Positions 878 to 58,390 of a stretch of DNA of 64,000 nucleotides are shown here, piece by piece. How positions within the stretch are numbered: position 1 is the first letter of the stretch; each line of letters opens with the position of its first letter. The notes under the pieces were generated by a model. That model ran no database searches, had not been told where the DNA came from, and worked only from the letters and a program-made list of their open reading frames with translations. The DNA is from Escherichia phage ST2: sequence record OM982647. One strand, 5' to 3'. The position numbers were made by a program, and so were the translations under genes.

Positions 878-895
878 GGGAGACTTCGGTCTCCC
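878..895 (+). terminator. stem-loop GGGAGAC-UUCG-GUCUCCC followed by short U-run (putative intrinsic terminator after gene 8)
   Basis: Perfect 7-bp inverted repeat with UUCG tetraloop, 5 nt after the gene 8 stop; identical 18-mer recurs three more times in the window. Confidence 0.6.
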
Positions 896-902
896 TTTCG
901 TG

Positions 903-910
903 TATAAATA
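903..910 (+). promoter_or_regulatory. T4-type late promoter (TATAAATA) for gene 9
   Basis: Exact TATAAATA 26 nt upstream of the gene 9 ATG. Confidence 0.7.
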
Positions 911-7271: not shown

Positions 7272-7277
7272 TGAAAA

Positions 7278-7291
7278 GGGCCTTCGGGCCC
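7278..7291 (+). terminator. stem-loop GGGCC-UUCG-GGCCC after wac
   Basis: 5-bp GC stem with UUCG tetraloop 7 nt after wac stop; no strong U-run, so may be a processing or stability element rather than a terminator. Confidence 0.45.
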
Positions 7292-7303
7292 TAAAGGATT
7301 TAT

Positions 7304-9023: not shown

Positions 9024-9041
9024 ACCGGTCGAAAGGCCGGT
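9024..9041 (+). promoter_or_regulatory. GAAA-tetraloop stem-loop immediately upstream of the gene 15 Shine-Dalgarno
   Basis: ACCGGUC-GAAA-GGCCGGU (7 bp with one G-U pair) followed directly by UAGGAG and the gene 15 ATG. Confidence 0.4.
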
Positions 9042-14210: not shown

Positions 14211-14223
14211 TAAGACGCCTGAT

Positions 14224-14241
14224 GGGCTATTTCGGTAGCCC
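14224..14241 (+). terminator. UUCG-tetraloop stem-loop after gene 18
   Basis: GGGCUAU-UUCG-GUAGCCC 14 nt after the gene 18 stop, directly abutting the gene 19 late promoter. Confidence 0.5.
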
Positions 14242-14242
14242 A

Positions 14243-14250
14243 TATAAATA
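14243..14250 (+). promoter_or_regulatory. T4-type late promoter (TATAAATA) for gene 19
   Basis: Exact TATAAATA 73 nt upstream of gene 19 ATG. Confidence 0.65.
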
Positions 14251-14814: not shown

Positions 14815-14821
14815 TCTTGTT

Positions 14822-14835
14822 GGGGAGAAATCCCC
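14822..14835 (+). terminator. GAAA-tetraloop stem-loop after gene 19
   Basis: GGGGA-GAAA-UCCCC 8 nt after gene 19 stop; no U-run, so terminator function uncertain. Confidence 0.4.
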
Positions 14836-14862
14836 AGCTTCCCGTGATGACGGAGAAGTCCA

Positions 14863-14898: not shown

Positions 14899-16470
14899 AT
14901 GAAATTTAATATCTTAAGTTTGTTTGCTCCATGGGCAAAAATGGACGAACGTGATTACAAAGACCAAGAAAAAGAAAATTTAGAATCGATCACCTCACCA
15001 AAATTAGATGACGGCGCTAAAGAATACGAAGTATCTGAAAATGAAGCACAGCAAACATATAATGCTATGTTTCAGAGAATGTTCGGTAGTCAAGAACCAG
15101 GGCTCAAATCAACCCGTGAATTAATTGATACATATCGAAATTTGATGACGAACTATGAAGTGGATAATGCAGTCTCTGAAATAGTTTCCGATGCTATCGT
15201 ATATGAAGATGATACAGAAGTCGTTTCTATAAATTTAGACAACACAAAATTTAGTCCAAATATAAAATCAATGATGTTGGATGAATTTAACGAAGTGTTG
15301 AATCATTTATCTTTCCAACGTAAAGGTTCAGACCATTTTAGGCGTTGGTATGTAGATTCTCGAATTTTCTTCCATAAAATTATTGACCCTAAACGCCCTA
15401 AAGAAGGTATTAAAGAGCTTCGTCGTTTAGACCCACGTCAAGTTCAATATGTCCGTGAAGTTATTACAACCACTGAAGCCGGTGTTAAAATAGTCAAGGG
15501 TTATAAAGAATATTTCATTTATGACACATCACACGAATCTTATGCTTGTGATGGACGCATATATGAAGCTGGCACAAAAATAAAAATCCCTAAAGCCGCG
15601 ATTGTTTATGCCCATTCTGGTTTAGTCGATTGTTGTGGTAAAAATATCATTGGTTATTTGCATCGGGCTATTAAGCCGGCGAACCAATTAAAACTTCTTG
15701 AAGATGCCGTCGTAATTTATCGTATTACTCGTGCTCCCGATCGTCGTGTATGGTACGTTGATACAGGTAATATGCCTTCAAGAAAAGCAGCAGAACATAT
15801 GCAACATGTTATGAATACGATGAAAAACCGTATTGCATATGATGCTACTACAGGCAAGATTAAAAACCAGCAGCATATTATGTCGATGACCGAAGATTAT
15901 TGGTTACAACGACGTGATGGTAAAGCAGTAACAGAAGTTGATACATTACCGGGTGCAGATAATACTGGAAATATGGAAGATGTACGTTGGTTCCGTAATG
16001 CGCTTTATATGGCTTTACGTATTCCTATTACCCGTATTCCAAGCGACCAAGGTGGTATACAGTTTGATGCTGGTACTTCTATTACACGAGATGAATTGTC
16101 ATTTGGTAAATTTATTCGTGAGCTGCAACATAAATTTGAAGAGATATTCCTAGACCCGCTTAAAACCAATTTAATTCTTAAAGGAATTATTACAGAAGAT
16201 GAGTGGAATGATGAAATAAATAATATTAAGATAAAATTTCATCGGGATAGTTATTTCTCGGAATTAAAGGATGCTGAGATTCTGGAGCGTCGCATTAATA
16301 TGCTTCAGATGGCCGAACCATTTATTGGTAAATATATTTCTCACAGAACAGCTATGAAAGATATTCTTCAGATGTCTGACGAGGAAATTGAACAAGAGGC
16401 TAAGCAAATTGAAGAAGAGTCGAAAGAGGCTCGTTTCCAAGACCCCGACCAAGAACAAGAGGATTTTTAA
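14899..16470 (+). CDS. 20: portal vertex protein gp20
   Basis: 523 aa; near-identical to T4 gp20 (524 aa) across the length ([18 protein letters not shown]...). Confidence 0.97.
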
Positions 16471-18635: not shown

Positions 18636-20204
18636 ATGACTACTATCAAAACTAAAGCTCAGCTCGTAGACAAATGGAAAGAATTGCTGGAAGGTGAAGG
18701 CCTGCCGGAAATCGCTAATAGCAAGCAGGCTATTATCGCTAAAATCTTCGAAAACCAGGAAAAAGATTTCGAAGTATCCCCTGAATATAAAGACGAGAAA
18801 ATCGCTCAGGCATTTGGTTCTTTCTTGACCGAAGCTGAAATTGGTGGTGACCACGGTTATAATGCTCAGAACATCGCAGCAGGTCAAACCTCTGGTGCAG
18901 TAACCCAAATTGGGCCGGCAGTTATGGGTATGGTTCGTCGTGCTATTCCTAATCTGATCGCTTTTGATATTTGTGGTGTTCAGCCTATGAACAGCCCTAC
19001 CGGTCAGGTATTTGCTCTCCGTGCAGTATATGGTAAAGACCCTATCGCTGCTGGCGCTAAAGAAGCTTTCCATCCGATGTATGCCCCAGACGCGATGTTC
19101 TCTGGACAGGGTGCTGCTAAGAAATTCCCAGCTCTGGCTGCCGACACTACTACTGTTGTAGGTGATATCTATACTCACTTCTTCCAAGAAACTGGTACTG
19201 TATATCTGCAAGCTTCTGCTGTCGTAACACTTGATTCTGGTGCAACTGATGCAGCTAAATTAGATGCTGAAATTAAGAAACAAATGGAAGCTGGTGCACT
19301 GGTAGAAATCGCTGAAGGTATGGCTACTTCTATCGCTGAACTCCAGGAAGGTTTCAACGGTTCTACCGACAACCCGTGGAACGAAATGGGCTTCCGTATC
19401 GACAAACAAGTTATTGAAGCTAAATCTCGTCAGCTGAAAGCAGCTTACTCCATCGAATTGGCACAAGACCTCCGTGCAGTACACGGTATGGATGCTGATG
19501 CTGAACTGAGCGGTATTCTTGCTACTGAAATTATGCTAGAAATCAACCGTGAAGTTGTTGATTGGATTAACTACTCGGCACAGGTTGGTAAATCTGGTAT
19601 GACCCTGACTCCGGGTTCTAAAGCTGGCGTATTTGACTTCCAGGACCCGATTGATATCCGTGGTGCTCGTTGGGCCGGTGAAAGCTTTAAATCTCTGTTG
19701 TTCCAGATTGATAAAGAAGCAGTTGAAATTGCTCGTCAAACCGGTCGTGGTGAAGGTAACTTCATTATCGCTTCCCGTAACGTAGTTAACGTACTGGCTT
19801 CAGTTGACACTGGTATTTCTTACGCTGCACAGGGTCTGGCTTCTGGTTTTAATACCGACACTACTAAGTCTGTATTTGCCGGTGTACTTGGTGGTAAATA
19901 CCGCGTATACATCGACCAGTATGCTAAACAGGATTACTTCACCGTTGGTTACAAAGGCGCTAACGAAATGGATGCAGGTATTTACTATGCTCCTTACGTT
20001 GCACTTACCCCACTGCGTGGTTCCGATCCTAAGAACTTCCAGCCGGTAATGGGCTTTAAAACTCGTTACGGTATCGGTGTTAACCCGTTTGCTGAAAGTT
20101 CCCTGCAGGCTCCAGGTGCTCGCATCCAGTCCGGTATGCCGTCTATCCTGAACAGCCTTGGTAAGAACGCTTACTTTAGACGCGTCTACGTTAAAGGAAT
20201 TTAA
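18636..20204 (+). CDS. 23: major capsid protein gp23
   Basis: 522 aa (T4 gp23 is 521 aa); MTTIKTKAQLVDKWKELLEGEGLPEIANSKQAII... N-terminal propeptide and body as in T4. Confidence 0.98.
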   Translation: MTTIKTKAQLVDKWKELLEGEGLPEIANSKQAIIAKIFENQEKDFEVSPEYKDEKIAQAFGSFLTEAEIGGDHGYNAQNIAAGQTSGAVTQIGPAVMGMVRRAIPNLIAFDICGVQPMNSPTGQVFALRAVYGKDPIAAGAKEAFHPMYAPDAMFSGQGAAKKFPALAADTTTVVGDIYTHFFQETGTVYLQASAVVTLDSGATDAAKLDAEIKKQMEAGALVEIAEGMATSIAELQEGFNGSTDNPWNEMGFRIDKQVIEAKSRQLKAAYSIELAQDLRAVHGMDADAELSGILATEIMLEINREVVDWINYSAQVGKSGMTLTPGSKAGVFDFQDPIDIRGARWAGESFKSLLFQIDKEAVEIARQTGRGEGNFIIASRNVVNVLASVDTGISYAAQGLASGFNTDTTKSVFAGVLGGKYRVYIDQYAKQDYFTVGYKGANEMDAGIYYAPYVALTPLRGSDPKNFQPVMGFKTRYGIGVNPFAESSLQAPGARIQSGMPSILNSLGKNAYFRRVYVKGI

Positions 20205-20233
20205 TGCTTTAACGTTAAAATACATAACCTTAT

Positions 20234-20251
20234 GGGAGACTTCGGTCTCCC
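20234..20251 (+). terminator. intrinsic terminator GGGAGAC-UUCG-GUCUCCC + U5 after gene 23
   Basis: Perfect 7-bp stem with UUCG tetraloop followed by CAUUUUUGG, 30 nt after gene 23 stop; same 18-mer as at 878, 42737 and 57467. Confidence 0.75.
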
Positions 20252-20261
20252 ATTTTTGGTT

Positions 20262-20531: not shown

Positions 20532-20560
20532 TTTGTTTACTCCTCTGTAGTTGATAAGTC

Positions 20561-20591
20561 TATAGTATCACATACCAAATACGTTGTAAAC
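20561..20591 (-). promoter_or_regulatory. T4 early-type promoter (GTTTAC -35, 17-bp spacer, TGnnATACTAT extended -10) for the 89-aa ORF
   Basis: Minus-strand GTTTAC at 20586-20591 and -10 region at ~20561-20568; same architecture as other early promoters in the window. Confidence 0.6.
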
Positions 20592-20597
20592 AATCTT

Positions 20598-20632: not shown

Positions 20633-21916
20633 ATGAGTAAAATCCAAAAATTATTGCGTGAATCTACAACGTCTACTAGCAACTCAATCGGTCGCCCAAA
20701 TCTCGTTGCTTTGACTCGCGCTACGACTAAATTAATATATTCTGACATTGTAGCAACACAAAGAACTAATCAACCTGTTGCTGCTTTTTATGGTATCAAA
20801 TATCTTAACCCAGATAACGAATTCACATTTAAAACTGGTGCTACTTATGCGGGTGAAGTTGGATATGTAGACCGAGAAAAAATTACTGAGCTCACAGAAG
20901 AATCAAAAGTCACACTAAATAAAGGCGATTTTTTCAAATATAATAATATCGTCTATAAAGTGTTAGAAGATACACCATTTGCAGATATTCAAGAAAGTGA
21001 TCTAGAATTAGCTCTTCAGATTGCAGTCGTTCATTTAAAGGTACGGTTATTTTCAGATGCAGCGGTAACAAGCAAATTTGAAAGCTCTGGTAGCGAAATT
21101 TCTGATGCAAGATTCCAGATTAATAAATGGCAAACTTCAGTCAAATCTCGTAAACTTAAAACCGGCCTCACTGTTGAATTAGCGCAAGATTTGGAAGCGA
21201 ATGGATTTGATGCCCCTAACTTCTTAGAAGATTTGCTTGCTACTGAAATGGCTGATGAAATTAATAAAGATATTCTTCAGTCTTTAATTACTGTATCGAA
21301 ACGTTATAAAGTTACTGGAATTACTGACACTGGATTTATTGACTTGAGCTATGCATCCGCTCCAGAAGCAGGTCGTTCATTATATCGAATGGTGTGTGAA
21401 ATGGTATCACACATTCAAAAAGAGACAACTTATACTGCAACGTTTTGTGTAGCCTCAGCCCGTGCAGCTGCTATTCTTGCTGCTTCCGGTTGGTTAAAAC
21501 ATAAGCCAGAAGATGACAAGTATCTTTCACAAAATGCTTATGGATTCTTGGCAAATGGATTACCTCTTTACTGCGATACCAACAGCCCGTTAGATTATGT
21601 TATTGTGGGTGTTGTAGAAAATATCGGCGAAAAAGAAATTGTAGGGTCCATCTTTTATGCTCCATACACTGAAGGAGTAGATTTAGATGACCCGGAACAT
21701 GTTGGTGCATTTAAAGTTGTAGTTGATCCAGAAAGCTTGCAACCGTCTATCGGATTATTGGTTAGATATGCTTTATCAGCAAATCCTTACACAGTAGCAA
21801 AAGACGAAAAAGAAGCGAGAATAATTGATGGTGGGGACATGGATAAAATGGCAGGACGTTCAGACTTGTCTGTTTTACTCGGTGTTAAATTGCCTAAAAT
21901 TATTATAGATGAATAA
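20633..21916 (+). CDS. 24: capsid vertex protein gp24
   Basis: 427 aa, same length as T4 gp24; gp23 paralogue fold signature (…ELAQDLEA…). Confidence 0.95.
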   Translation: MSKIQKLLRESTTSTSNSIGRPNLVALTRATTKLIYSDIVATQRTNQPVAAFYGIKYLNPDNEFTFKTGATYAGEVGYVDREKITELTEESKVTLNKGDFFKYNNIVYKVLEDTPFADIQESDLELALQIAVVHLKVRLFSDAAVTSKFESSGSEISDARFQINKWQTSVKSRKLKTGLTVELAQDLEANGFDAPNFLEDLLATEMADEINKDILQSLITVSKRYKVTGITDTGFIDLSYASAPEAGRSLYRMVCEMVSHIQKETTYTATFCVASARAAAILAASGWLKHKPEDDKYLSQNAYGFLANGLPLYCDTNSPLDYVIVGVVENIGEKEIVGSIFYAPYTEGVDLDDPEHVGAFKVVVDPESLQPSIGLLVRYALSANPYTVAKDEKEARIIDGGDMDKMAGRSDLSVLLGVKLPKIIIDE

Positions 21917-21924
21917 ACGAAAAA

Positions 21925-21940
21925 GGGACCGTAAGGTCCC
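21925..21940. terminator. bidirectional intrinsic terminator between convergent genes 24 and rnlB
   Basis: A5-GGGACC-GUAA-GGUCCC-U5: GC stem flanked by A-run and T-run, so a U-tract follows the hairpin on either strand. Confidence 0.8.
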
Positions 21941-21947
21941 TTTTTCG

Positions 21948-22946
21948 TTATGATACTAATTCAATCCATGCAGGACGCAGAACATCTTGCACCATTCTAA
22001 TTAATTCTTTCTTAACAAGACTCGGGTCATCGGATGATGTTAATACAATACCTTCACGAGAAGTTTCTTCTAGAATATCTTTAACAGTCAATCCAGTCAC
22101 TTTACCGAAATCTTTTGGCGTTACAGCCCCAATCTTAGAAATCACATTATTAACACGATTTAATGTAACATAACAAGCTAGAACATCAAGCAAGTTTTTG
22201 TCAATTTCGGTTAATGGAACCTGAGTTTTAATAGGCTTATCAGACTTTTTCTTTTCACTGAATTTAGAGTTCTTGCACTTAATAGCTACACGAGTACCGT
22301 TTGGCAGCCATTTAGGGAAACAGGGCTTCAGAACATAACCTTCCGCAGTATTATTACCAATAACATTAGCATCAAATACACAATTATTTGCTTCGACAAG
22401 GTCTTCTGACGCAGTAGCATTATAAGCGGCTAAGACAGAATCAAGGTCGTTTGGAATCATGATAAGAGAATCAAATGTTCCACGTCCAAGCATTGGTGCC
22501 ATTTTAAAACCGAATTCATTACAGAAATCTTGCATTTCGTAATCGGTCAAATACGTATTATCACCACTTTCTGTATTGATAATGATATCGAACACATAAA
22601 AATCTTTTTCACCATAGTCAACACCTTTCTGGATTCCACCACCAGCGAATTCACCGAATACTTGATATGATACGGCTCGAGCTGCGTGCATTAATTCCTG
22701 AACGGCTTTAATAGCTTTATCATACTTTTTGAGTACTATTTCATAGCCATAAAAATCTTCTGCTGGAAGAATAGGGCCTGTGCGCTTGGCGCATGTGACG
22801 TTGTCACGTTCAATTATTAACGAGAAGTTAGTCCCATGGATTTTCTCACGTGCTACCCAAACACCAGTAGTCAAACCATTAGTGTAGAGTTTTTCAATAA
22901 ACTTAGAGTTGTAGTGGTTTTCAAGACTGCTGTATTTCTTAAACAT
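21948..22946 (-). CDS. rnlB: RNA ligase 2 (Rnl2)
   Basis: 332 aa; nucleotidyltransferase motif I K-I-H-G-T-N (KIHGTNFSL) near N-terminus; T4 Rnl2 is 334 aa; position 24-rnlB-hoc. Confidence 0.93.
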
Positions 22947-23508: not shown

Positions 23509-23589
23509 AATCAATCCCGTATTATTTGGTTTGTGCCATTATATACATCAATCTCAAGTTGTGTTTTGTATGCTTTAAAAACGAAGAAA

Positions 23590-23603
23590 GGGGCCGAAGC
23601 CCC
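23590..23603 (-). terminator. UUCG-tetraloop stem-loop after hoc
   Basis: On the minus strand GGGGC-UUCG-GCCCC, 7 nt after the hoc stop. Confidence 0.55.
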
Positions 23604-23609
23604 TTACGT

Positions 23610-25468: not shown

Positions 25469-26983
25469 ATGACTGACATTAAAGTACATTTTTATGATTT
25501 TAGTCACGTGCGCATTGAATGCGACGAAAGTACGTTTTACGAACTTCGTGACTTTTTTAGCTTTGAAGCTGACGGGTACAAATTCAACCCGCGTTACAAA
25601 TATGGGAACTGGGATGGTAGAATTCGACTTTTAGATTACAACCGTTTGTTACCATATGGACTTGTAGGACAAATAAAAAAGTTCTGTAACAATATGAGTT
25701 ATTCTGTATGGATTGACCCTAAAATCTTTGAGACTGAAGACCTTACCAGGGAAGATTTTGACGCATGGCTTTCTAAACAAGAGATTTATTCAGGCAACTC
25801 CAAAATAGAACCACATTGGTATCAAAAAGATGCAGTATATGAAGGTCTGGTTAATCGTCGTCGAATTTTAAACCTTCCAACATCAGCAGGTAAATCACTA
25901 ATCCAAGCACTTTTAGCTCGGTATTATCTAGAGAACTATGAAGGTAAAATTCTCATTATCGTCCCTACAACAGCATTGACAACCCAGATGGCTAATGATT
26001 TTGTTGATTATCGCTTGTTTAGTCATTCGATGATTAAGAAAATTGGTGGTGGTGCTGATAAAGCTGACAAATCTAAAAACGACGCTCCAATTATTGTTGG
26101 CACATGGCAAACGGTAGTTAAGCAGCCTAAAGAATGGTTCTCTCAGTTCGGTATGATGATGAACGATGAATGCCACTTAGCAACAGGCAAAAGTATTTCT
26201 TCAATCATCTCAGGATTAAATAATTGCATGTTTAAATTCGGTTTATCTGGCTCATTAAGAGACGGAAAAGCCAATGTAATGCAGTACGTAGGTATGTTCG
26301 GCGAAATCTTCCGTCCTGTTAGCACGTCTAAATTAATGGAAGATGGACAGGTAACTGAGCTTAAGATTAATAGTATTTTCCTTCGTTATCCAGACGAATT
26401 CACTGTTAAATTAAAAGGTAAAACATACCAAGAAGAAGTTAAAATTATTACCGGACTAAAACGACGTACAAAGTGGATTGCTCAACTTTCGGTCAAATTG
26501 GCTAAGAAAGACGAGAACGCCTTTGTAATGTTTAAACACGTTACACACGGTAAAGAAATATTTGAAGCTATTAAAGAGCTTGGATACGAAAAAGTTTATT
26601 ACGTATCAGGTGAAGTTGATACTGAAACACGTAACGCGCTTAAAGTCATGGCAGAAAATGGTAAAGGCATTATTATTGTTGCATCATATGGAGTATTCTC
26701 TACTGGTATTTCAGTCAAGAATCTTCATCATGTTATTTTTGCCCATGGTGTTAAATCAAAAATTATCGTACTTCAAACCGTAGGTCGTGTGCTTCGTAAG
26801 CACGGTTCTAAAGCTGTTGCTACAGTTTGGGATCTCATCGACGATGCAGGTGTAAAACCTAAATCATTAAATACTAAAAAGAAGTATACTCATCTTAATT
26901 ACTTGTTAAAACACGGTATTGATCGTATCCAACGTTACGCTGATGAGAAATTTAACTATGTAATGAAAACAATTAATTTATAA
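25469..26983 (+). CDS. uvsW: UvsW RNA-DNA / DNA helicase (SF2)
   Basis: 504 aa; Walker A-like PTSAGKS, DECH box (MMMNDECHLATG), helicase C-terminal motifs; plus-strand island among minus-strand genes as in T4. Confidence 0.93.
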   Translation: MTDIKVHFYDFSHVRIECDESTFYELRDFFSFEADGYKFNPRYKYGNWDGRIRLLDYNRLLPYGLVGQIKKFCNNMSYSVWIDPKIFETEDLTREDFDAWLSKQEIYSGNSKIEPHWYQKDAVYEGLVNRRRILNLPTSAGKSLIQALLARYYLENYEGKILIIVPTTALTTQMANDFVDYRLFSHSMIKKIGGGADKADKSKNDAPIIVGTWQTVVKQPKEWFSQFGMMMNDECHLATGKSISSIISGLNNCMFKFGLSGSLRDGKANVMQYVGMFGEIFRPVSTSKLMEDGQVTELKINSIFLRYPDEFTVKLKGKTYQEEVKIITGLKRRTKWIAQLSVKLAKKDENAFVMFKHVTHGKEIFEAIKELGYEKVYYVSGEVDTETRNALKVMAENGKGIIIVASYGVFSTGISVKNLHHVIFAHGVKSKIIVLQTVGRVLRKHGSKAVATVWDLIDDAGVKPKSLNTKKKYTHLNYLLKHGIDRIQRYADEKFNYVMKTINL

Positions 26984-26997
26984 GGGCTTCGGCCCTT
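26982..26997 (+). terminator. UUCG-tetraloop stem-loop between uvsW and uvsW.1
   Basis: AAGGGC-UUCG-GCCCUU overlapping the uvsW stop codon. Confidence 0.45.
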
Positions 26998-27008
26998 AGG
27001 AGATAAAA

Positions 27009-27504: not shown

Positions 27505-27724
27505 CCACTCGCATGCACATATCGATACCCATATCTTTTGTATAAAAATACTCGTCGATGTACCCGGCAAACTTCCCTTTAATATAAAGGACGTCTTCGC
27601 CACAAGGATGGTCTGCCAGGATACGAATATCCTGACGACGTAGACGATACTTTTCCATTAAGAATTTAATTTCAGTTTCAAATTCTTCATCATTATTAAA
27701 GGCATCTTCAATTGAGTACCGCAT
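27500..27724 (-). CDS. hypothetical protein (74 aa), uvsY.-1-like
   Basis: ATG start overlapping uvsY stop by 1 nt; position matches T4 uvsY.-1. Confidence 0.7.
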   Translation of the reverse strand: MRYSIEDAFNNDEEFETEIKFLMEKYRLRRQDIRILADHPCGEDVLYIKGKFAGYIDEYFYTKDMGIDMCMRVV

Positions 27725-29289: not shown

Positions 29290-30042
29290 ATGGCTAATAT
29301 AATTCGTTGTAAATTACCAGATGGTGTTCATCGTTTCAAGCCGTTCACCGTGGCGGATTATAGAGACTTTTTACTAGTTAGAAATGATATCGAACATCGT
29401 TCGCCGCAAGAACAAAAAGAAATAATTGCCGATCTGATTGATGATTATTTTGGCGAGTACCCTAAAACATGGCAACCATTTATATTCCTGCAAGTTTTTG
29501 CAGGCTCTATAGGCAAAACAAAAGTTCCCGTTATTTTCACTTGCCCTAAATGCTCTAAAGAAAAAACTGCACCATTTGAGATATATCAAAAAGAACTAGT
29601 CGAACCTGAACTTGATGTTGCTGGTATAAAAATACGTTTTTCTTTCCCTGAAAAGTTTTATGACAATAAAGCATTAATGATAAGTGAAAACATAAAAGAA
29701 ATATATTATAATGATGAATGGTACCCATGGAATGATTTGACTGAAGAGAACCAAATCCAAGTAATAGAAGCAATAGACATTGACTCGCTCGAGAAGGTTA
29801 TTGCTTCTATGAACCCTATTAATTTGACCCTTAGATTAGGTTGTTGTGAACGTCATGTTAAAACATATACTGATATCTTAGAGGTTTTTAAATTGTTAGT
29901 TAACCCTGATGAGATTTTTACATTCTATCAGATAAACCATTCACTAGTAAAGAGTCAATACACATTGGATTCTATTATGCAAATGATTCCTGTTGAACGT
30001 GGTATTGCTTTAACATTAGTAGAAAAGGACCATAAAAAATGA
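29290..30042 (+). CDS. 51: baseplate hub assembly catalyst gp51
   Basis: 250 aa (T4 gp51 is 249 aa); two CxxC pairs (CPKCSKEK…CCERH). Confidence 0.9.
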
Positions 30043-35548: not shown

Positions 35549-35565
35549 GGGAGACGTTGTCTCCC
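35549..35565. terminator. bidirectional terminator between convergent gene 54 and the alt-distal ORF
   Basis: A6-GGGAGAC-guu-GUCUCCC-U3: near-copy of the recurrent GGGAGAC hairpin, flanked by A-run and T-run. Confidence 0.7.
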
Positions 35566-35574
35566 TTTAGGGGT

Positions 35575-35868
35575 TTATTTACGGAATGAAAGGAATGCTG
35601 GTGCTCGAAATGGAGTATCATCTTTAGAGTATTTAACTAATACGACCATTGGTACCTCTGTTTCTAAATGACCTGTCAATACACCGATAAAAATTTGATC
35701 AGTGTGCTCAGGGTCACGAAAGTTTTTAAGAGGTTCCATAGCAATATGGAATGCACCTGGGAATACTCGATTCAATTCGTCAATCACAGCTTCGTTAAAA
35801 ACATCATCTGCCGGGATAACATCTTCAACTACTAGTTCTTGACCATTAAAGCGAAGCATAGATTTCAT
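35575..35868 (-). CDS. hypothetical early protein (97 aa) downstream of alt
   Basis: ORF-track frame 35575..35940; start set at ATG 35868 preceded by GAGGAAAA Shine-Dalgarno, with early promoter just upstream. Confidence 0.6.
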   Translation of the reverse strand: MKSMLRFNGQELVVEDVIPADDVFNEAVIDELNRVFPGAFHIAMEPLKNFRDPEHTDQIFIGVLTGHLETEVPMVVLVKYSKDDTPFRAPAFLSFRK

Positions 35869-35898
35869 AACGTTTTCCTCATGTTGTTGATGAGATGA

Positions 35899-35927
35899 TA
35901 GTATCACACATCCATGTGTTTGTAAAC
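35899..35927 (-). promoter_or_regulatory. T4 early-type promoter for the 97-aa ORF
   Basis: Minus-strand GTTTAC (35922-35927, overlapping alt stop) - 17 bp - TGnATACTAT. Confidence 0.6.
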
Positions 35928-38014
35928 TATCCTTGGACAAATTTAAACGGAACTGATTCTAAATCCATTAAAGATGCTAACAATTTCAAACCTTTAGGTG
36001 CACTAGTTTTTTCTACAAATGAGGAGAACGATACCGGCTCATCTGATTCGATTTCACCCGCCATAGCAACCACCTCGCCTGTTTCCATGAGAACATCGCC
36101 GTCGTAAATGACAGCTTCATCCAACTGGTCCGAGGACATGACTTCAGCTTGAATAAATTTAAGGTTGGATTCTAAACCTGCACCGGTGTCAGATGACGCA
36201 TCTGTAATTTTATTTATCTGCAAGAGAATGCCTCTAGGCAAAATAATTTCTTGCTCATTAGGGTGATTACTCAACTGTCCTGGATAAATCACGTTAACTT
36301 TATGGGCGCCATCAATAGCCCATCCAACGTTAACACGGATTTGTTCTGGTGCATGCATAGCTGTTCTTACTTGACTAGGAGAAATGGTAACACCTTCGTC
36401 ATTATTGTCAATGTTAAGCTCTTTGCGAACTTCTTCAGGAGCAAGTCCAAGGGCAACGTTCTCTTTAAACCCGCCGAAAATAATAGGAGCTAGTGAAGTG
36501 GAAACATAGTTTCTGAAGTAGAATACCTTATTTTTAACCATTGCTTCGTAAATAGGCATTCTGATAGACTGAGCTCTATATAACGTTAGTCCTTCAGGTA
36601 AACGGTCTCCATTTAAAAACGCCGAATCAAGACCATCAATAGCGCGTTTAACTTCATCTTCATCCGCAACATCGTAAAAATCTGGTTTATAACGACCTAA
36701 CAACATATTATTGATATCGGTATACGCAGAAGAGGCATATTCACGAATAGCTCGTTTTTCAGCAACAGAGTATTGTTTAGGGTCCCGATTCATTGTTATA
36801 TTAAAGGTGCCTCTAGCCGATTCTCGTGCATAAGTATACATCACATTAGACAAGAACGCTGATTTACGTTGTTTCCAAGTTTTTTCAGATACTTCAGCTA
36901 AAACATCGTCGGCCAGTTGGAAATTATCACGTCTAAAATCTTCAAACCATTCGTCTTTAATAGAGTCTGCAATTTCGTTTGCAGCTTCAACAAAAGCAGC
37001 TAATGCTTTAACAGATGTTGTTTTTTCAGTTTTAATTTTCTTAGCAAACTTTTCTAAAGTTGGCTTAATAACACTACCATAAGAAACTTCATCAGCAAAT
37101 CTAAAGGATTCATCAATACGATTATAAATCTTATTTTCGATATCAGCAACTAAAGTGCCTTTTGCTGTGGATGATGCTTGGGCTAGTACGATTTCATATG
37201 CTTCAGGAAGTAATTCGGCTGTAGCCGGGCCACTAACTTCTTTAGCAGAATTTTCGTATTTCTGGAATAACTCACCTTCTTGGCGGTCAGCTTCTAAAGA
37301 TTGGCTTGCGGCAATAGCGCGCCGAGAAATTTTAGTACGAGCAATAACAGGCTTATCTTTACGTTTTTCTTCTACAGCAGCAATAGAACCAGCGATAGCC
37401 GTTTCTTTGGTGACCTTTTCGCCAGTCTTTTTACTCACATAAACTTCGCCAACATCAGAATCTACTTTCGTGTACAACTCTGTGTTAATGTTAGGGATGC
37501 CTTTAATATCTTCAATGTTGGCATTTTTACGAACCATCATCACATAGGTGTGTTTACCTGTGAATTGATACATTGCCGACAATACTTTAAAACGACCACC
37601 GGTTTTAGTAGAAACTAAACGAGCAAGAAGAGTTTGAAGTTGTTGTCCGCGTCCTTTCAATTTCTTGGTAGGGAATCTGAACAGAACCGCGTCCATACGA
37701 AGAGCTTTAACCTGTTCATATACTGTATTGAAAATGGTGTTGATTGCATCAATAGGAGCAGGACCAAGACCGTTTTTCAATTCAGCGAGATTACCCTTTT
37801 CAGACAGACTCATAATAACGACATGAGCATATTTGTCGCCAAGTTTAACTTGTTTTACAGCATCGCCTTCAGAAAGGTAAGAGAATAAGCGAACTACGAT
37901 GTTTGTATCGATATCACCAATTTTCCAGACTTGTGGAACTTTAGCTTTAGGGTTCAAATTGACGACAGGAAGACTGCCTTCAGATTCAAACACTTCATTT
38001 AATTGTTCAGACAT
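35927..38014 (-). CDS. alt: Alt ADP-ribosyltransferase (virion-packaged, modifies host RNA polymerase)
   Basis: 695 aa (T4 Alt is 682 aa); position 54-alt-30 as in T4. Confidence 0.92.
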   Translation of the reverse strand: MSEQLNEVFESEGSLPVVNLNPKAKVPQVWKIGDIDTNIVVRLFSYLSEGDAVKQVKLGDKYAHVVIMSLSEKGNLAELKNGLGPAPIDAINTIFNTVYEQVKALRMDAVLFRFPTKKLKGRGQQLQTLLARLVSTKTGGRFKVLSAMYQFTGKHTYVMMVRKNANIEDIKGIPNINTELYTKVDSDVGEVYVSKKTGEKVTKETAIAGSIAAVEEKRKDKPVIARTKISRRAIAASQSLEADRQEGELFQKYENSAKEVSGPATAELLPEAYEIVLAQASSTAKGTLVADIENKIYNRIDESFRFADEVSYGSVIKPTLEKFAKKIKTEKTTSVKALAAFVEAANEIADSIKDEWFEDFRRDNFQLADDVLAEVSEKTWKQRKSAFLSNVMYTYARESARGTFNITMNRDPKQYSVAEKRAIREYASSAYTDINNMLLGRYKPDFYDVADEDEVKRAIDGLDSAFLNGDRLPEGLTLYRAQSIRMPIYEAMVKNKVFYFRNYVSTSLAPIIFGGFKENVALGLAPEEVRKELNIDNNDEGVTISPSQVRTAMHAPEQIRVNVGWAIDGAHKVNVIYPGQLSNHPNEQEIILPRGILLQINKITDASSDTGAGLESNLKFIQAEVMSSDQLDEAVIYDGDVLMETGEVVAMAGEIESDEPVSFSSFVEKTSAPKGLKLLASLMDLESVPFKFVQG

Positions 38015-38054
38015 AGTGTTTTCCTTTTAGTAATAATTTATATTTATGCCAAAA

Positions 38055-38070
38055 AGAGCCCGAAGGCTCT
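38055..38070 (-). terminator. UUCG-tetraloop stem-loop upstream of alt
   Basis: Minus strand AGAGCC-UUCG-GGCUCU followed by U-rich stretch, overlapping the stop of the small ORF downstream of gene 30. Confidence 0.5.
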
Positions 38071-38258
38071 TAATCCACAATCGGGAGCAAAGTACGATAA
38101 ACTTCAAAATTAGGGCCTTTTTCGTACCCATTAACGTTATCTACGAAAACCCGATACGAATTTTCATTAGGAAAATCTAATATAATCTGAGAGCAAGAGG
38201 TGGAAACATCTCCACCATCCTTCTTAGCTACAATAACTGTTTCTAAATAAGCTTTCAT
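38070..38258 (-). CDS. hypothetical small protein (62 aa) between gene 30 and alt
   Basis: ORF-track frame 38070..38279 overlaps gene 30; first ATG is at 38258, overlapping the ligase stop as TAATG; weak ribosome-binding site. Confidence 0.35.
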   Translation of the reverse strand: MKAYLETVIVAKKDGGDVSTSCSQIILDFPNENSYRVFVDNVNGYEKGPNFEVYRTLLPIVD

Positions 38259-41793: not shown

Positions 41794-41809
41794 GGAGGCC
41801 GAAGCCTCC
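41794..41809 (-). terminator. UUCG-tetraloop stem-loop after the 121-aa ORF
   Basis: Minus strand GGAGGC-UUCG-GCCUCC followed by UUUGAGG; 10 nt after the stop at 41819. Confidence 0.5.
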
Positions 41810-41818
41810 ATTTTAAGA

Positions 41819-42184
41819 TTAGATATCGAATTCGTTAAGAACTACATCAAAGATTGCTTCGAGATGTTCAGGTTTAGCTCGGTTACTCAGGATATGACGA
41901 ATCCAAGTTTTAACCAGAAGTTTACGATTAACACCATTCCAGCAAGGATGAGTACCTAAATCACGTTGACGGAAATCGTCATCTAATGCAATTTTGAAGT
42001 TGGAACCTTCCATCGTGATTGAAACCGTGATGCCGTTTTCAAATCGCATATAAACGTAATTAGGAGTCATGCACTGTTCGATTTCACAAACTGAACCGTT
42101 ATTATGCTTCCATAAGCAAATAACTTCAGAAGAACCAGCGATACCGTTAGAAACATATTTACGTTCGAAGTTGGTGTAGTTCAT
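41819..42184 (-). CDS. hypothetical early protein (121 aa)
   Basis: ATG start with GGAGAA Shine-Dalgarno and own early promoter; no recognisable family. Confidence 0.6.
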   Translation of the reverse strand: MNYTNFERKYVSNGIAGSSEVICLWKHNNGSVCEIEQCMTPNYVYMRFENGITVSITMEGSNFKIALDDDFRQRDLGTHPCWNGVNRKLLVKTWIRHILSNRAKPEHLEAIFDVVLNEFDI

Positions 42185-42225
42185 TTTATTCTCCAGATGT
42201 TTAAGTTGTTTGTTGGTACAGGTCT

Positions 42226-42254
42226 ATAATAACATAACCTGTACCAAAGTAAAC
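42226..42254 (-). promoter_or_regulatory. T4 early-type promoter for the 121-aa ORF, -10 bracketed by a 9-bp inverted repeat
   Basis: Minus-strand GTTTAC (42249-42254) - 17 bp - TGTTATTAT; GGTACAGGT (42215-42223) and ACCTGTACC (42237-42245) flank the -10. Confidence 0.6.
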
Positions 42255-42258
42255 ATTT

Positions 42259-42630
42259 TTATTTGATTTTTGTCCACTTAGCTGAATCAATAACACCTTT
42301 TGCTTTAATCTTCTCAATTAATGACTCTGCGCGATTTCTGGCGTTTTCGTACCATACAACATCTTCAGAGTAACCAGTTTCTTCATCTTCGTAAGTTTTA
42401 GAACGAATACAGCCGTAAACTGTAGAATTCAGGCGGTAAATTTCACCAGTGAAAAAGTTTTCGATTTCGATATGATAACAAAAATCGTCTGAAGGGCCAT
42501 CAGGAGTTGTACAATAAACCACATCACCTTGAACTGAACGAACCATCCACTGTAACTCGTTAACAACTTGAGATTTATATCCATCATGGTCGCGGCATTT
42601 AATTGTAGCATTTAAATTGATAGTGTTCAT
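42259..42630 (-). CDS. hypothetical early protein (123 aa)
   Basis: ATG start with GGAGAA Shine-Dalgarno; early promoter-like sequence upstream (GTTTAC at ~42697). Confidence 0.6.
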   Translation of the reverse strand: MNTINLNATIKCRDHDGYKSQVVNELQWMVRSVQGDVVYCTTPDGPSDDFCYHIEIENFFTGEIYRLNSTVYGCIRSKTYEDEETGYSEDVVWYENARNRAESLIEKIKAKGVIDSAKWTKIK

Positions 42631-42736
42631 TTTATTCTCCGGTTGTTTTATTGATTAGGTGGTACAAGTCTATAGTAACACATCCTACAGGAGAGTAAAC
42701 ATCTTTTTAAACTTTTTCTGCCCTAAACGCACAAAA

Positions 42737-42754
42737 GGGAGACCGAAGTCTCCC
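42737..42754 (-). terminator. intrinsic terminator GGGAGAC-UUCG-GUCUCCC + U-run after the small basic protein gene
   Basis: Same 18-mer as after genes 8, 23 and 32; on the minus strand followed by UUUUGU. Confidence 0.7.
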
Positions 42755-42759
42755 TAAAA

Positions 42760-42939
42760 TTATGCAACAACCTTTCCAAAACGAGAAGCATCATCTCGAA
42801 GAACTGCACGTGCTCTGCGCATGATCTTCTCAACTGTTTGATTAATACGAGAGTTCGACCCACGCTTGTATCCAGCGCGTTTAGAGGTACCATCAACTTT
42901 CTTTTCAACTGCTTTCTTTGCTTTAGCTTGTTTTGCCAT
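42760..42939 (-). CDS. small lysine/arginine-rich protein (59 aa); not in the ORF track
   Basis: ATG 42939 with AAGAGA 8 nt upstream; MAKQAKAKKAVEKKVDGTSKRAGYKRGSNSRINQTVEKIMRRARAVLRDDASRFGKVVA; TAA at 42760-42762 followed 5 nt later by the strong GGGAGAC terminator. The overlapping track ORF 42723..42908 is in another frame and looks non-coding. Confidence 0.5.
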   Translation of the reverse strand: MAKQAKAKKAVEKKVDGTSKRAGYKRGSNSRINQTVEKIMRRARAVLRDDASRFGKVVA

Positions 42940-45957: not shown

Positions 45958-46194
45958 TTATAGTGTTCCATATACTCGAGTTGCTTCAACAAGACCATCA
46001 CTGCCTAATTTAAGATTAGTAATTTGGTCACCATCTTTAGGATTAACGATTATGAGAAAAGAACGTGGAGATTCTTGAATAACTCGTAATGTTGCATCCT
46101 GGAAACGTTCAGATACTTTATTAATCAAAGTCTGAGCGAACTCTTTTACTTTAACATGAAATTCTTGAAGCGTGATAGGTTTTTCACTTAACAT
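45958..46194 (-). CDS. hypothetical early protein (78 aa)
   Basis: ATG start with GAGGAAAACAGA leader and early promoter upstream. Confidence 0.55.
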   Translation of the reverse strand: MLSEKPITLQEFHVKVKEFAQTLINKVSERFQDATLRVIQESPRSFLIIVNPKDGDQITNLKLGSDGLVEATRVYGTL

Positions 46195-46253
46195 TCTGTT
46201 TTCCTCATTGTGTTGGTAGAGTCATAGTATCACAACTCCACCATGTTGTAAAC

Positions 46254-46529
46254 TTAAATTGCAAAACATTTAATTTCTTGTGAATCGAAATCAACTTCGC
46301 ACTGAATTACTAGTTCAGCATCAAGTCCAAACACAACAATCACATGAGCCGAGCTGGGCAACAGTGTAACAGACACAGAATCCACTTGGTCAGGCACCAG
46401 CGTATTCAAAACGTAGAGTAGTTCAGAGTGGATCTTAAGCTCGGTAGCCGTGTCCAGCTTATCAAAGAAATGATTTGCGATAATCTGACTAAAAACGACC
46501 TTTACAATTTCAGAATATTTAGGGAACAT
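46254..46529 (-). CDS. hypothetical protein (91 aa)
   Basis: ATG-initiated ORF in the cd-pseT accessory interval. Confidence 0.55.
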   Translation of the reverse strand: MFPKYSEIVKVVFSQIIANHFFDKLDTATELKIHSELLYVLNTLVPDQVDSVSVTLLPSSAHVIVVFGLDAELVIQCEVDFDSQEIKCFAI

Positions 46530-49235: not shown

Positions 49236-49723
49236 GTTTTAATAATCTCAATGATTTCATCTCGGGATAATCCATTGATAAGAACGGTTTTCAAACCATC
49301 ACACTGGATTTTGTACGATTCAAACAATACACACAACTCTTCTGCTGTATGATACGGACTTGAAATTCCGAGGCGGTTGAATTTGTCGGTAAGAGGGTCG
49401 CAAATAATGTAGAATTTTATACCTGCGATATGTACGTTTGGTTGACTAATATTAATGAACACATTAGCGTCATATTTAGTCAAATTGTTTTGAAGAAATT
49501 CTACCATGGCATTAACTGCTTCCGGCATTGCTTCACGTTTCTCTTCAGCGTATCGGGTGGAATACTCTTTTTGTTTTACTTTCTTTTTAAGATTTTTGGC
49601 CAGTGTAACACGTAGGTCAGTAAGATAACCAACTGGACGTCCTTTCTTAAAGACCCGGATTCCGTCAGTTGTATCTCCAAAAGCGGTTACGACCATATCG
49701 TTAGTAATCAATTGCATATTCAT
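49223..49723 (-). CDS. alc: Alc (host transcription terminator on cytosine-containing DNA)
   Basis: ORF-track frame 49223..49786; start set at ATG 49723 with GAGGAG Shine-Dalgarno, giving 166 aa (T4 Alc is 167 aa); position between rnlA and spanins. Identity by position and length. Confidence 0.8.
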   Translation of the reverse strand: MNMQLITNDMVVTAFGDTTDGIRVFKKGRPVGYLTDLRVTLAKNLKKKVKQKEYSTRYAEEKREAMPEAVNAMVEFLQNNLTKYDANVFINISQPNVHIAGIKFYIICDPLTDKFNRLGISSPYHTAEELCVLFESYKIQCDGLKTVLINGLSRDEIIEIIKTCLK

Positions 49724-49753
49724 AATTTTCTCCTCGTGTTGTTGATAAAAGCC

Positions 49754-49783
49754 ATAGTAACACCTTCCTTGGTGTTTGTAAAC
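49754..49783 (-). promoter_or_regulatory. T4 early-type promoter upstream of alc
   Basis: Minus-strand GTTTAC (49778-49783) - 17 bp - TTACTAT, directly after the rnlA stop. Confidence 0.55.
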
Positions 49784-49785
49784 CA

Positions 49786-50919
<1,134 letters not shown>

Positions 50920-51377: not shown

Positions 51378-51385
51378 AATAAAGT

Positions 51386-51399
51386 GGGACCGAAGTCCC
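51386..51399 (-). terminator. UUCG-tetraloop stem-loop between nrdB and denA
   Basis: Minus strand GGGAC-UUCG-GUCCC, 5 nt after the nrdB stop. Confidence 0.5.
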
Positions 51400-51403
51400 G
51401 TCC

Positions 51404-56984: not shown

Positions 56985-57377
56985 CTACTTTTTAAAAGTT
57001 TTTTGCAAAAGTTCGATGATTTCGTCGACGTTGGTTTCATCTACGATACAATGGATTTTTGTTACACCTAAAGTTATACCTTCGTTAGAAGGTTGAGGCT
57101 TTACTAAATCTACCTCAGTAAAGTATTTGAACTCGTCAGGATAAATCTCAAAATAAGTTTCAATTTCACCACCGGCAGAACATACAGTACCATCTTCCAT
57201 AGTTACACTTACTACGTTTGACGTATCGCTATCATAATCAGGTTCCATTCCGTTTACAACAAAACTAGGCCCGTGGAGTTCAATCAATTTTAACATCTTA
57301 GCGTTATTGTGTGGTGCTTCTTGAACAAAGTCATCTTTAAATAAAGGGTTAATGATATAAGATTTTCCGATTTCCAT
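56985..57377 (-). CDS. hypothetical protein (130 aa), frd.2-position
   Basis: ATG start with GAGGAAA Shine-Dalgarno and own early promoter. Confidence 0.6.
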   Translation of the reverse strand: MEIGKSYIINPLFKDDFVQEAPHNNAKMLKLIELHGPSFVVNGMEPDYDSDTSNVVSVTMEDGTVCSAGGEIETYFEIYPDEFKYFTEVDLVKPQPSNEGITLGVTKIHCIVDETNVDEIIELLQKTFKK

Positions 57378-57406
57378 TTTGATTTCCTCATGTTGTTGAT
57401 AAGTCT

Positions 57407-57435
57407 ATACTAACACATCCAGGGAAGAAGTAAAC
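57407..57435 (-). promoter_or_regulatory. T4 early-type promoter for the 130-aa ORF
   Basis: Minus-strand GTTTAC (57430-57435) - 17 bp - TAGTAT region; same conserved leader as other early promoters. Confidence 0.55.
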
Positions 57436-57466: not shown

Positions 57467-57484
57467 GGGAGACCGAAGTCTCCC
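57467..57484 (-). terminator. intrinsic terminator GGGAGAC-UUCG-GUCUCCC + U-run after gene 32
   Basis: Same 18-mer as at 878, 20234 and 42737; begins 7 nt after the gene 32 stop; followed on the minus strand by UUUUGAG. Confidence 0.75.
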
Positions 57485-57490
57485 GATTTA

Positions 57491-58390
57491 TTATAGACCA
57501 GCTAACAGGTCATCGAGGTCGCCATCATCAGAGGATGAGGTAGAGCTCATGAAGTCGTCTTCAGTTTTTGCAGAACTAAAGGCTTCCATGTCTTTATCAA
57601 AATCGTCAAGGTCAGAAGCAACTTTATCTGCAACAGAAGCTGCGGCTGCTGCACCACCAAGAGCGGCAGTACCAAGAACCTTAGCGAAAGATTCATTTAA
57701 TTTTTCAAAGGATTTAAACTGGTCTTTAGCCGTCAAAGTAGTAAGATCTACCATCTGGTCATATAGTTCTTTCTGGAATGCTTCATCATTAATACGAGGA
57801 ATTTCAGATTGACCCAAGAATTTAGATTCATCATAGTTGCTAAAACCGGAAACCTGCTTAGCTTTCAGAACGAAGTTAGCACCTTCAAACGGACAAGTAA
57901 CATCAACTGGAGTTTCACCCATTTCGGTATCAACTGCAATCATTGCATTGATTTTGTCCCAAATCTTTTTACCGAAACGATATTTAAATACTTTACCTTC
58001 GTTATCTGGAGCTTGAGGGTCTTTAACAACCAGAATATTAGCCCAATAAGAAGTTTTACGTTTCAGTTGAGAATATTCATTTTTGTTGGTATTGTACAGG
58101 TCATTTTTACTAATGTACTGACATACAGGACAAGAGTCGTAATCACCGTGTGTAGAAGAGCAATTTTCAATATACCATTTACCATTTTTCTTGAAACCAT
58201 GGTTAACAAGAATTGCAAATGGTAGTGCATCATCAGTTTTTGCTGGCAAGAAACGAATTACCGCTTGACCATTACCTGATGCATCTAGCTTCAGCTTCCA
58301 TTCGCCTTTATCTTCTGAAGAGAAACCTTTGTTACCGTTCAGTTTAGCCATTTGAGCAGCGAGGTCAGCAGTAGATTTACGTTTAAACAT
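57491..58390 (-). CDS. 32: single-stranded DNA-binding protein gp32
   Basis: 299 aa; [36 protein letters not shown]… near-identical to T4 gp32; acidic C-terminal tail. Confidence 0.97.

Follow-up and report, generated by a model that had tools for sequence, protein, structure and literature searches.

Four identical UUCG hairpins after genes 8, 23, 30.9 and 32 of a Mosigvirus segment as probable intrinsic terminators of a widespread design

T4 mRNA is where the UUCG tetraloop was discovered, and the intergenic regions of this phage are especially rich in CUUCGG hairpins (PMC4371310; PMC8948821). For the C(UUCG)G hairpins of T4 these papers cite Tuerk et al. 1988, PNAS 85:1364. A second class of described elements are PeSLs (promoter-early stem-loops), composites of a stem-loop and an early promoter in T4-like phages, for which recombination-mediated modular shuffling has been proposed (Arbiol et al. 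2010, PMC2839356; Comeau et al. 2014, PMC4122927) and whose early promoters follow the consensus TTTACW..N17..TAYWAT (PMC4122927). The repeated 18-mer hairpin described here shares with the T4 C(UUCG)G terminators a G/C-rich stem closed by a C-G pair, the UUCG loop, the U-run, the intercistronic position in sense orientation and the sites themselves (after genes 8, 23, 30.9 and 32). The difference is that the lineage studied here uses a GGAGAC stem at seven sites, whereas T4 reuses other stems two to three times each. Compared to generic bacterial intrinsic terminators, which include the same 18-mer with a T-rich tail, nothing essential differs, and the U-runs in the phage are rather short. 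The 18-mer hairpins very probably belong to a kind of ordinary terminator already known since 1988, and they are already labelled as predicted terminators in the GenBank record of a near-identical phage, Escherichia phage vB_EcoM_PhAPEC2.

We analysed a stretch of 64,000 nucleotides of Escherichia phage ST2 (record OM982647), hereafter the window. Its first 6 kb show 99.6% identity to PhAPEC2 and 98.7% to RB69, and the window is therefore a segment of a Mosigvirus, i.e. an RB69-type T-even phage. It spans gene 8 to gene 34, with gene names and strands transferred from the PhAPEC2 annotation. The plus-strand genes are those at 1-21.9 kb, 25.5-27.2 kb, 29.3-35.5 kb and beyond 60.8 kb; all others are on the minus strand.

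A preliminary description had reported one 18-nt hairpin four times in the transcribed sense, after gp8, gp23, a gene for a small basic protein (gp30.9) and gp32, and our sequence scan confirmed this. The sequence GGGAGACTTCGGTCTCCC (GGGAGAC-UUCG-GUCUCCC in RNA) has four exact copies in the window, which are given below with the promoter-like elements next to them and with a related hairpin after gp54.

878-895, plus strand: copy 1, 4 nt 3' of the gp8 stop codon (871-873), tail UUUCGUG
903-910, plus strand: late promoter box TATAAATA of gene 9, 7 nt 3' of copy 1
20234-20251, plus strand: copy 2, 29 nt 3' of the gp23 stop codon (20202-20204), tail AUUUUUGGUUUU
20232-20253, plus strand: extended hairpin of copy 2 with two added A-U pairs, followed by UUUUUGGUUUU
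35549-35565, both strands: loop variant GGGAGAC-GUU-GUCUCCC between the convergent genes gp54 (plus) and alt.-3 (minus)
42737-42754, minus strand: copy 3, 5 nt 3' of the gp30.9 stop codon (42760-42762), tail UUUUGUG
42672-42699, minus strand: early-promoter-like TTTACT-N16-TACTAT, 3' of copy 3 and 5' of gp30.8
57467-57484, minus strand: copy 4, 6 nt 3' of the gp32 stop codon (57491-57493), tail UUUUGAG
57407-57434, minus strand: early-promoter-like TTTACT-N16-TAGTAT, 3' of copy 4 and 5' of frd.2

The number of copies expected by chance is 0, as none occurred in 100 dinucleotide shuffles of the window, and allowing up to two mismatches added no further match in the window. The hairpin at 35549-35565 had been called a one-position variant, which does not hold: its loop has 3 nt and is an indel plus a substitution away from the 18-mer. 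Its flanks are an A-run upstream and a T-run downstream; together with the convergent arrangement of gp54 and alt.-3 this makes the element look bidirectional, so that we predict a bidirectional terminator, and the PhAPEC2 record labels a terminator on both strands at this site.

All four exact copies read ..GAC-UUCG-GUC.. in the sense RNA of the upstream gene and continue directly into a U-run. The earlier statement that the 18-mer is reused on both strands is thus correct for the DNA but not for the RNA, in which every copy presents UUCG in sense. Each copy has the C-G closing pair, the intercistronic position and the UUCG in the mRNA that characterize C(UUCG)G tetraloop hairpins, and each also has the stable G/C-rich stem, the 3' U-run and the sense position past a gene end that are expected of an intrinsic terminator. 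The bare 18-mer folds at -12.0 kcal/mol into a 7-bp stem with five G-C pairs, a structure that makes up 97% of the ensemble. A consensus terminator scan called copies 2 and 4; copies 1 and 3, with only 3-4 U before an interruption, fell under the U-run threshold of this simple scan. At each of the four sites the PhAPEC2 record bears the label 'putative terminator determined with ARNold'. A search of the whole window against Rfam 15 gave no match at or above the gathering score.

The sequences 3' of the copies fit transcription-unit boundaries. The box TATAAATA, the late promoter consensus of T4, lies 3' of the gp8 terminator also in T4, VR5 and vB_EQ1. Copies 3 and 4 are each separated from their early promoter by an A-rich stretch, and copy 2, which sits between gp23 and a convergent small ORF (the ORF188c homologue), has no promoter after it. 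Taken together, the four 18-mers are very probably Rho-independent terminators of a T4-like phage that would at once act as protective hairpins at mRNA 3' ends; termination at these sites, as well as its efficiency, is what we infer from sequence, predicted fold and position. E. coli RNA polymerase would pass the stop codon of gp8, gp23, gp30.9 or gp32, and the nascent RNA would fold into the 7-bp G/C-rich stem with its unusually stable C(UUCG)G tetraloop, followed by 3-5 U at which part of the polymerases would release. The freed RNA would retain the hairpin at its 3' end, slowing 3'-5' exonucleases, while the next transcription unit would begin after another few to about 40 nt, at the late promoter after copy 1 and at the early promoters after copies 3 and 4. 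The copy sites would accordingly mark transcription-unit boundaries of an RB69-type phage, which is of little import beyond annotation, and the hairpins could be used as compact, portable terminators.

Comparison with related phages, which had been suggested as a check, revealed terminators at the same positions in T4, in VR5 and in distant T4-like phages. VR5 is a Dhakavirus and vB_EQ1 a divergent Mosigvirus-like phage. The 5' arm and loop, or the whole 18-mer, at each site are as follows.

After gene 8: T4 GGGAGCC-CAUG; VR5 GGGCC-GCAA; vB_EQ1 GGGAGCC-UUCG; window and PhAPEC2 the 18-mer
After gene 23: T4 GGGAACC-UUCG; VR5 the exact 18-mer; vB_EQ1 the 18-mer; window and PhAPEC2 the 18-mer
After gp30.9: T4 GGACUCC-UUCG; VR5 GGGACUC-UUCG; vB_EQ1 the 18-mer; window and PhAPEC2 the 18-mer
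After gene 32: T4 GGGGACC-CUAGA; VR5 GGGAAGAC-UUCG; VR7 GGGGACC-UUCG; vB_EQ1 the 18-mer; window and PhAPEC2 the 18-mer
Between gene 54 and alt.-3: T4 GGGGACC-GAAA; VR5 GGAGAGC-GUAU; window and PhAPEC2 GGGAGAC-GUU

T4 contains no exact copy of the 18-mer but has a hairpin with U-run at every orthologous site, with a different stem sequence at each, and VR5, VR7 and vB_EQ1 likewise have a hairpin with U-run at the orthologous sites examined. The gp23-distal hairpin of the window is identical in VR5, in vB_EQ1 and in one further locus (L140), and vB_EQ1 also carries the 18-mer after gene 35. Among gp23 loci from IMG/VR, all 30 of 30 showed a hairpin with T-rich tail 10-61 nt past the end of the gp23 match; this sample extends to cyanomyovirus-like contigs (gp23 identity 39%), with mostly UUCG loops and very different stems. 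At the gp30.9 loci (n=20) GG(G)ACUCC-UUCG was found in most genera and GGGACUCC-UUCG across genera. Position and structure are kept while the stem sequence is free, and this is therefore what marks a structural RNA signal, in this case a terminator. The exact 18-mer is retained at the four sites by Mosigvirus genomes with up to ~14% divergence in the compared gp32 region. The genes beyond the hairpins differ in an unsystematic comparison: 3' of the gp32 terminator lies frd.3 in T4 vs frd.2 in the window and VR5, and 3' of gp23 lies segD in T4 vs the ORF188c homologue in the window.

The frd.3 homologue is in itself a small gene that has moved between slots flanked by promoters and terminators: it adjoins the gene 32 terminator in T4 (146575-146802), lies between frd.1 and a VR7 gp254-like ORF preceding frd.2 in VR5 (146255-146482), and is found in the e.6-e.8 region of PhAPEC2 (71041-71268).

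The proposal that selection maintains the repeated hairpin for termination or for the stability of the transcript has good support from the fold, the sense position, the U-run, the promoter that follows, the terminators of the relatives and the ARNold labels. As to which of the two functions prevails, the hairpins might mainly be stabilisers of mRNA 3' ends or processing barriers, with read-through, a cut downstream and trimming back to the UUCG hairpin setting the half-life of the transcript. We consider this possible but rather doubtful. The short and interrupted U-runs of copies 1 and 3 would agree with it, as would the hairpins at 7277, 9024, 14222 and 26981, which are intercistronic and in sense yet lack a U-run, and the varied functions described for CUUCGG hairpins include transcript stabilisation (PMC8948821). 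However, a T-rich tail follows all four copies and 85% of the listed occurrences of the 18-mer elsewhere, and such a tail would be needless for a pure stability element; moreover, the roles in stability and termination are not exclusive. Because their U-runs are short, copies 1 and 3 are probably leaky, and these two may terminate weakly and have mainly a stability or processing role. A literature search for Term-seq or other 3'-end mapping of T4 or RB69 transcripts returned nothing usable.

Terminator function is also the reading suggested by the distribution of the 18-mer beyond T4-like phages. Unrelated viral contigs with a G+C content of 0.30-0.63 (at least 120) and bacterial contigs of many phyla (again at least 120) contain it, in both cases with unrelated flanks among the matches listed. 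Read in the UUCG sense, the next 6 nt include at least four T in 104 of the 122 occurrences listed for viruses and in 104 of the 126 listed for bacteria, so that ~85% of the listed occurrences have a T-rich tail. Two control hairpins, one with swapped arms (GGGTCTCTTCGGAGACCC) and one with permuted inner bases (GGGAAGCTTCGGCTTCCC), were found at 85 and 90 viral loci, respectively, also mostly with T-rich tails. The 18-mer is one member of a small favoured design with a GGG- and purine-rich 5' arm, a C-G closing pair and UUCG, and it is, as far as its occurrences in these genomes indicate, a generic terminator sequence that has arisen many times. Followed by a T4-type late promoter it was found in 56 viral stretches, with up to three per genome. 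That the 18-mer is uniquely favoured is unsupported, given 85 and 90 viral loci for the controls vs at least 120 for the 18-mer itself; hairpins of this design are common as a class. The preliminary description had taken its exact reuse as a sign of selection; this evidence is weaker than claimed, because unrelated phages and bacteria carry the 18-mer and its close analogues ~85 to more than 120 times each and because T4 reuses other hairpins alike. A mobile element or dispersed repeat of the REP/MITE kind was rejected, since flanks are unrelated in the 120 viral and 120 bacterial loci listed; in place of homology past the hairpin, shared flanks or terminal repeats, the longest stretch shared by copies in the window is 29 nt.

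Two observations on individual contigs stand apart. Several genomes of iron oxidisers carry two 18-mers within 8 kb, often as ACAG-18mer-CUGUUUUU, and these look like a lineage-specific multi-copy terminator or repeat (bacterial contigs L434, L451, L490, L493, L497 and L508, mostly Gallionellaceae/Nitrosomonadales). On the 121-kb IMG/VR contig 2974739009_000001 the gp8-gp9 junction with copy 1 is present twice, 13.5 kb apart, which probably is an assembly artefact or a terminal redundancy.

Within the phage lineage, one stem occupies a quarter of the terminators in Mosigvirus. The complete PhAPEC2 genome has exactly four 18-mers, all in the region of the window; beyond these, gp41 and gp35 are followed by the 16-nt core GGAGAC-UUCG-GUCUCC and gp54 by the loop variant, so that the GGAGAC/GUCUCC stem is present in 7 of ~28 annotated terminators. 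The GGAGAC stem is absent from T4, and VR5 has it only after gene 23 within the 80.5-170 kb of its genome compared. Judged by their presence in other genera, the hairpins after genes 23 and 35 look old, and the remaining ones are confined to the Mosigvirus lineage.

In PhAPEC2 identical hairpins are reused as a general trait of the genome. It has the 22-nt terminator hairpin GCCCCUUCC-GAAA-GGUUGGGGC three times (~72.8, 73.3 and 57.4 kb, outside the window) and GGGAC-UUCG-GUCCC four times. T4 shows the same phenomenon with different stems: AGGACUCC-UUCG-GGAGUCCUU followed by UUUU recurs after soc and gp30.9 (15303-15324, 130339-130360), and AAGGGGC-UUCG-GCCCCUU is present both after hoc and at 29952.

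That the copies are exactly identical is most likely due to a sequence space that is small and strongly preferred, and lineage-specific homogenisation may have been an added contributor. A stronger version, in which the identical copies are both products of and substrates for recombination, so that gene conversion homogenises them and rearrangements become possible as proposed for PeSL, appears unlikely to us. In its specific form, short-patch gene conversion between terminator-promoter cassettes would have carried the ancestral hairpin, the one that several genera share after gp23 and after gp35, to no fewer than four further terminators (gp8, gp30.9, gp32 and gp41), replacing different ancestral stems, and the gp54 terminator would be a loop variant of the same stem; we hold this course of events to be similarly improbable. 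Several findings do point in its direction. Besides the share of the GGAGAC/GUCUCC stem among PhAPEC2 terminators (7 of ~28, as opposed to none in T4 and the gene 23 site alone in the part of VR5 compared), the gp8 site can be ordered stepwise from T4 GGGAGCC-CAUG over vB_EQ1 GGGAGCC-UUCG to GGGAGAC-UUCG in the window, and the last step changes a C-G to an A-U pair without a wobble intermediate and gives exactly the sequence already resident in the genome. Tails co-vary per genome, with CCC-AUUUUUG at gp8, gp23 and gp35 in vB_EQ1 and UUUCG(U/C)G at gp8 and gp35 in the window and PhAPEC2. Copies 1 and 3 have 29 nt at 97% identity in common, and copies 3 and 4 are cassettes of stem-loop and early promoter resembling PeSLs. 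On the other hand, the flank identity of the seven family members was not significantly above that of other terminators (permutation test in PhAPEC2, p=0.16), and convergence is plainly possible for a hairpin that arises in hundreds of unrelated genomes and whose same-design controls were found at 85 and 90 loci. T4 and PhAPEC2 reuse other short hairpins two to four times too, deletion between direct copies would cost essential genes, and the orientation bias of UUCG speaks for selection on RNA. If gene conversion were true, very short regulatory hairpins would be involved in exchange within the genomes of T4-like phages, serving as micro-homology, and the PeSL idea would extend to core late-gene regions.

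With 18 bp, the hairpin offers very little sequence for homologous recombination. The suggestion that the copies could act as short recombination sites, for which the published precedent concerns only the longer PeSL composite (PMC2839356, PMC4122927), found no support in the flanks (p=0.16), in the orientation bias at the RNA level or in the genomes compared, in which no rearrangement attributable to the 18-mer was found. The longest stretches shared between copies are the 29 nt at 97% in copies 1 and 3, and a perfect match of 23 nt between copies 3 and 4. Copies 3 and 4 resemble PeSLs in the succession of stem-loop, A-rich stretch, TTTACT, 16-nt spacer, TA(C/G)TAT, Shine-Dalgarno sequence and start codon, and a second cassette like that after gp30.9 stands before gp30.7 at a distance of 446 nt, the second one without a stem-loop. 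Unlike PeSLs, copies 1 and 2 lie in late-gene regions, where a late promoter comes after copy 1 and no promoter after copy 2, and all four copies flank conserved core genes and not hyperplastic regions. For exchange of the PeSL type, the hairpin itself is a poorer candidate than the longer early-promoter cassettes beside copies 3 and 4.

The repeated cassette corresponds to a 111-nt direct repeat with 72% identity (D2; 42168-42278 and 42614-42724, minus strand, 446 nt apart) that contains the early promoter, 5'UTR and first codons before gp30.8 and gp30.7. It brackets gene 30.8 in a tandem-cassette layout by which the PeSL papers propose gene excision or insertion. Further repeats of 28-46 nt with 72-89% identity (D3, D4, D7 and D9) are conserved early promoters with 5'UTRs (GTTTAC...TGTGATACTAT...Shine-Dalgarno) in minus sense at 20546-20594, 35863-35930, 46189-46256, 49716-49786 and 57370-57418, a dispersed homology much longer than the 18-mer. 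Gene 34 contains four copies of a 71-nt unit with 62-73% identity (62346-63205, plus strand), which represent a repeated protein motif of the proximal long tail fibre.

It is very improbable that the exact sequence is the recognition site of a phage or host factor coordinating the four transcripts, such as the GGAG-specific endoribonuclease RegB. In favour of it are the retention of all four exact copies in Mosigvirus genomes with up to ~14% divergence in the compared gp32 region, the GGAG within the 5' arm and the regB homologue that the PhAPEC2 annotation lists. Against it, very diverse phages and bacteria without such a factor use the same 18-mer, the orthologous terminators of T4 and VR5 differ in sequence, and the GGAG is enclosed in a stem of high stability, which makes a RegB target unlikely. 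The GGTCTC inside the 18-mer is the BsaI/Eco31I site. A role as restriction site was set aside as irrelevant for a phage with modified cytosines (PMC6024577); for the UUCG loop no protein binder is known (PMC4371310), which likewise counts against a recognition site.

Selection on the RNA is also apparent from the UUCG hairpins of the window as a whole. Those whose stem has at least 5 bp number 19 vs 4.3 +/- 2.0 in dinucleotide shuffles (~4.5-fold), and with gene strands according to PhAPEC2 the UUCG is in the sense of the local genes in 18 of these 19; it follows from this bias that selection acts on RNA and not on the DNA palindrome. Ten other intergenic hairpins with UUCG or GAAA loops had been listed in the preliminary description, and all ten are present, although four of them have no U-run in sense.

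7277-7292, plus strand: AGGGCC-UUCG-GGCCCU in the wac/gp13 gap, no sense U-run, ending at the Shine-Dalgarno sequence of gp13
9024-9041, plus strand: ACCGGUC-GAAA-GGCCGGU in the gp14/gp15 gap, no U-run, followed by UAGGAG (Shine-Dalgarno)
14222-14243, plus strand: AUGGGCUAU-UUCG-GUAGCCCAU after gp18, no U-run, its 3' end running into a TATAAATA late promoter box
14819-14838, plus strand: GUUGGGGA-GAAA-UCCCCAGC after gp19
21916-21949, both strands: GGGACC-GUAA-GGUCCC with A/T runs between gp24 and rnlB, a bidirectional terminator in the PhAPEC2 annotation
23588-23605, minus strand: AAGGGGC-UUCG-GCCCCUU with U-rich tail after hoc, a separate UUCG terminator in the PhAPEC2 annotation
26981-26998, plus strand: UAAGGGC-UUCG-GCCCUUA in the uvsW/uvsW.1 gap, no U-run, followed by GGAG (Shine-Dalgarno)
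38054-38071, minus strand: AAGAGCC-UUCG-GGCUCUU with UUUGG after alt.1
41794-41809, minus strand: GGAGGC-UUCG-GCCUCC with UUUGAGG in the gp30.x region
51384-51401, minus strand: ACGGGAC-UUCG-GUCCCAC with UUUAUUAU after nrdB, reported by the terminator scan

The hairpins at 7277, 9024, 14222 and 26981 are intercistronic mRNA hairpins and not sense terminators, since they lack a sense U-run, and a tetraloop hairpin alone therefore does not imply termination. At 7277-7292 the only T-run is on the antisense strand, and it is the reverse strand that scores as terminator-like. The T4 equivalent of the 14222 hairpin is GGCCUGU-UUCG-GCAGGCC followed by ATATAAATA, and T4 also carries the AAGGGGC-UUCG-GCCCCUU hairpin after hoc. 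Those at 7277-7292, 9024-9041 and 26981-26998 may be processing, stability or translation-insulating structures between cistrons. Finally, a 9-bp hairpin, GUCAGGAUA-UUCG-UAUCCUGGC, lies inside the uvsY.-1 coding region (27615-27636, minus strand) and is found at the same place in T4 (114805-114826).
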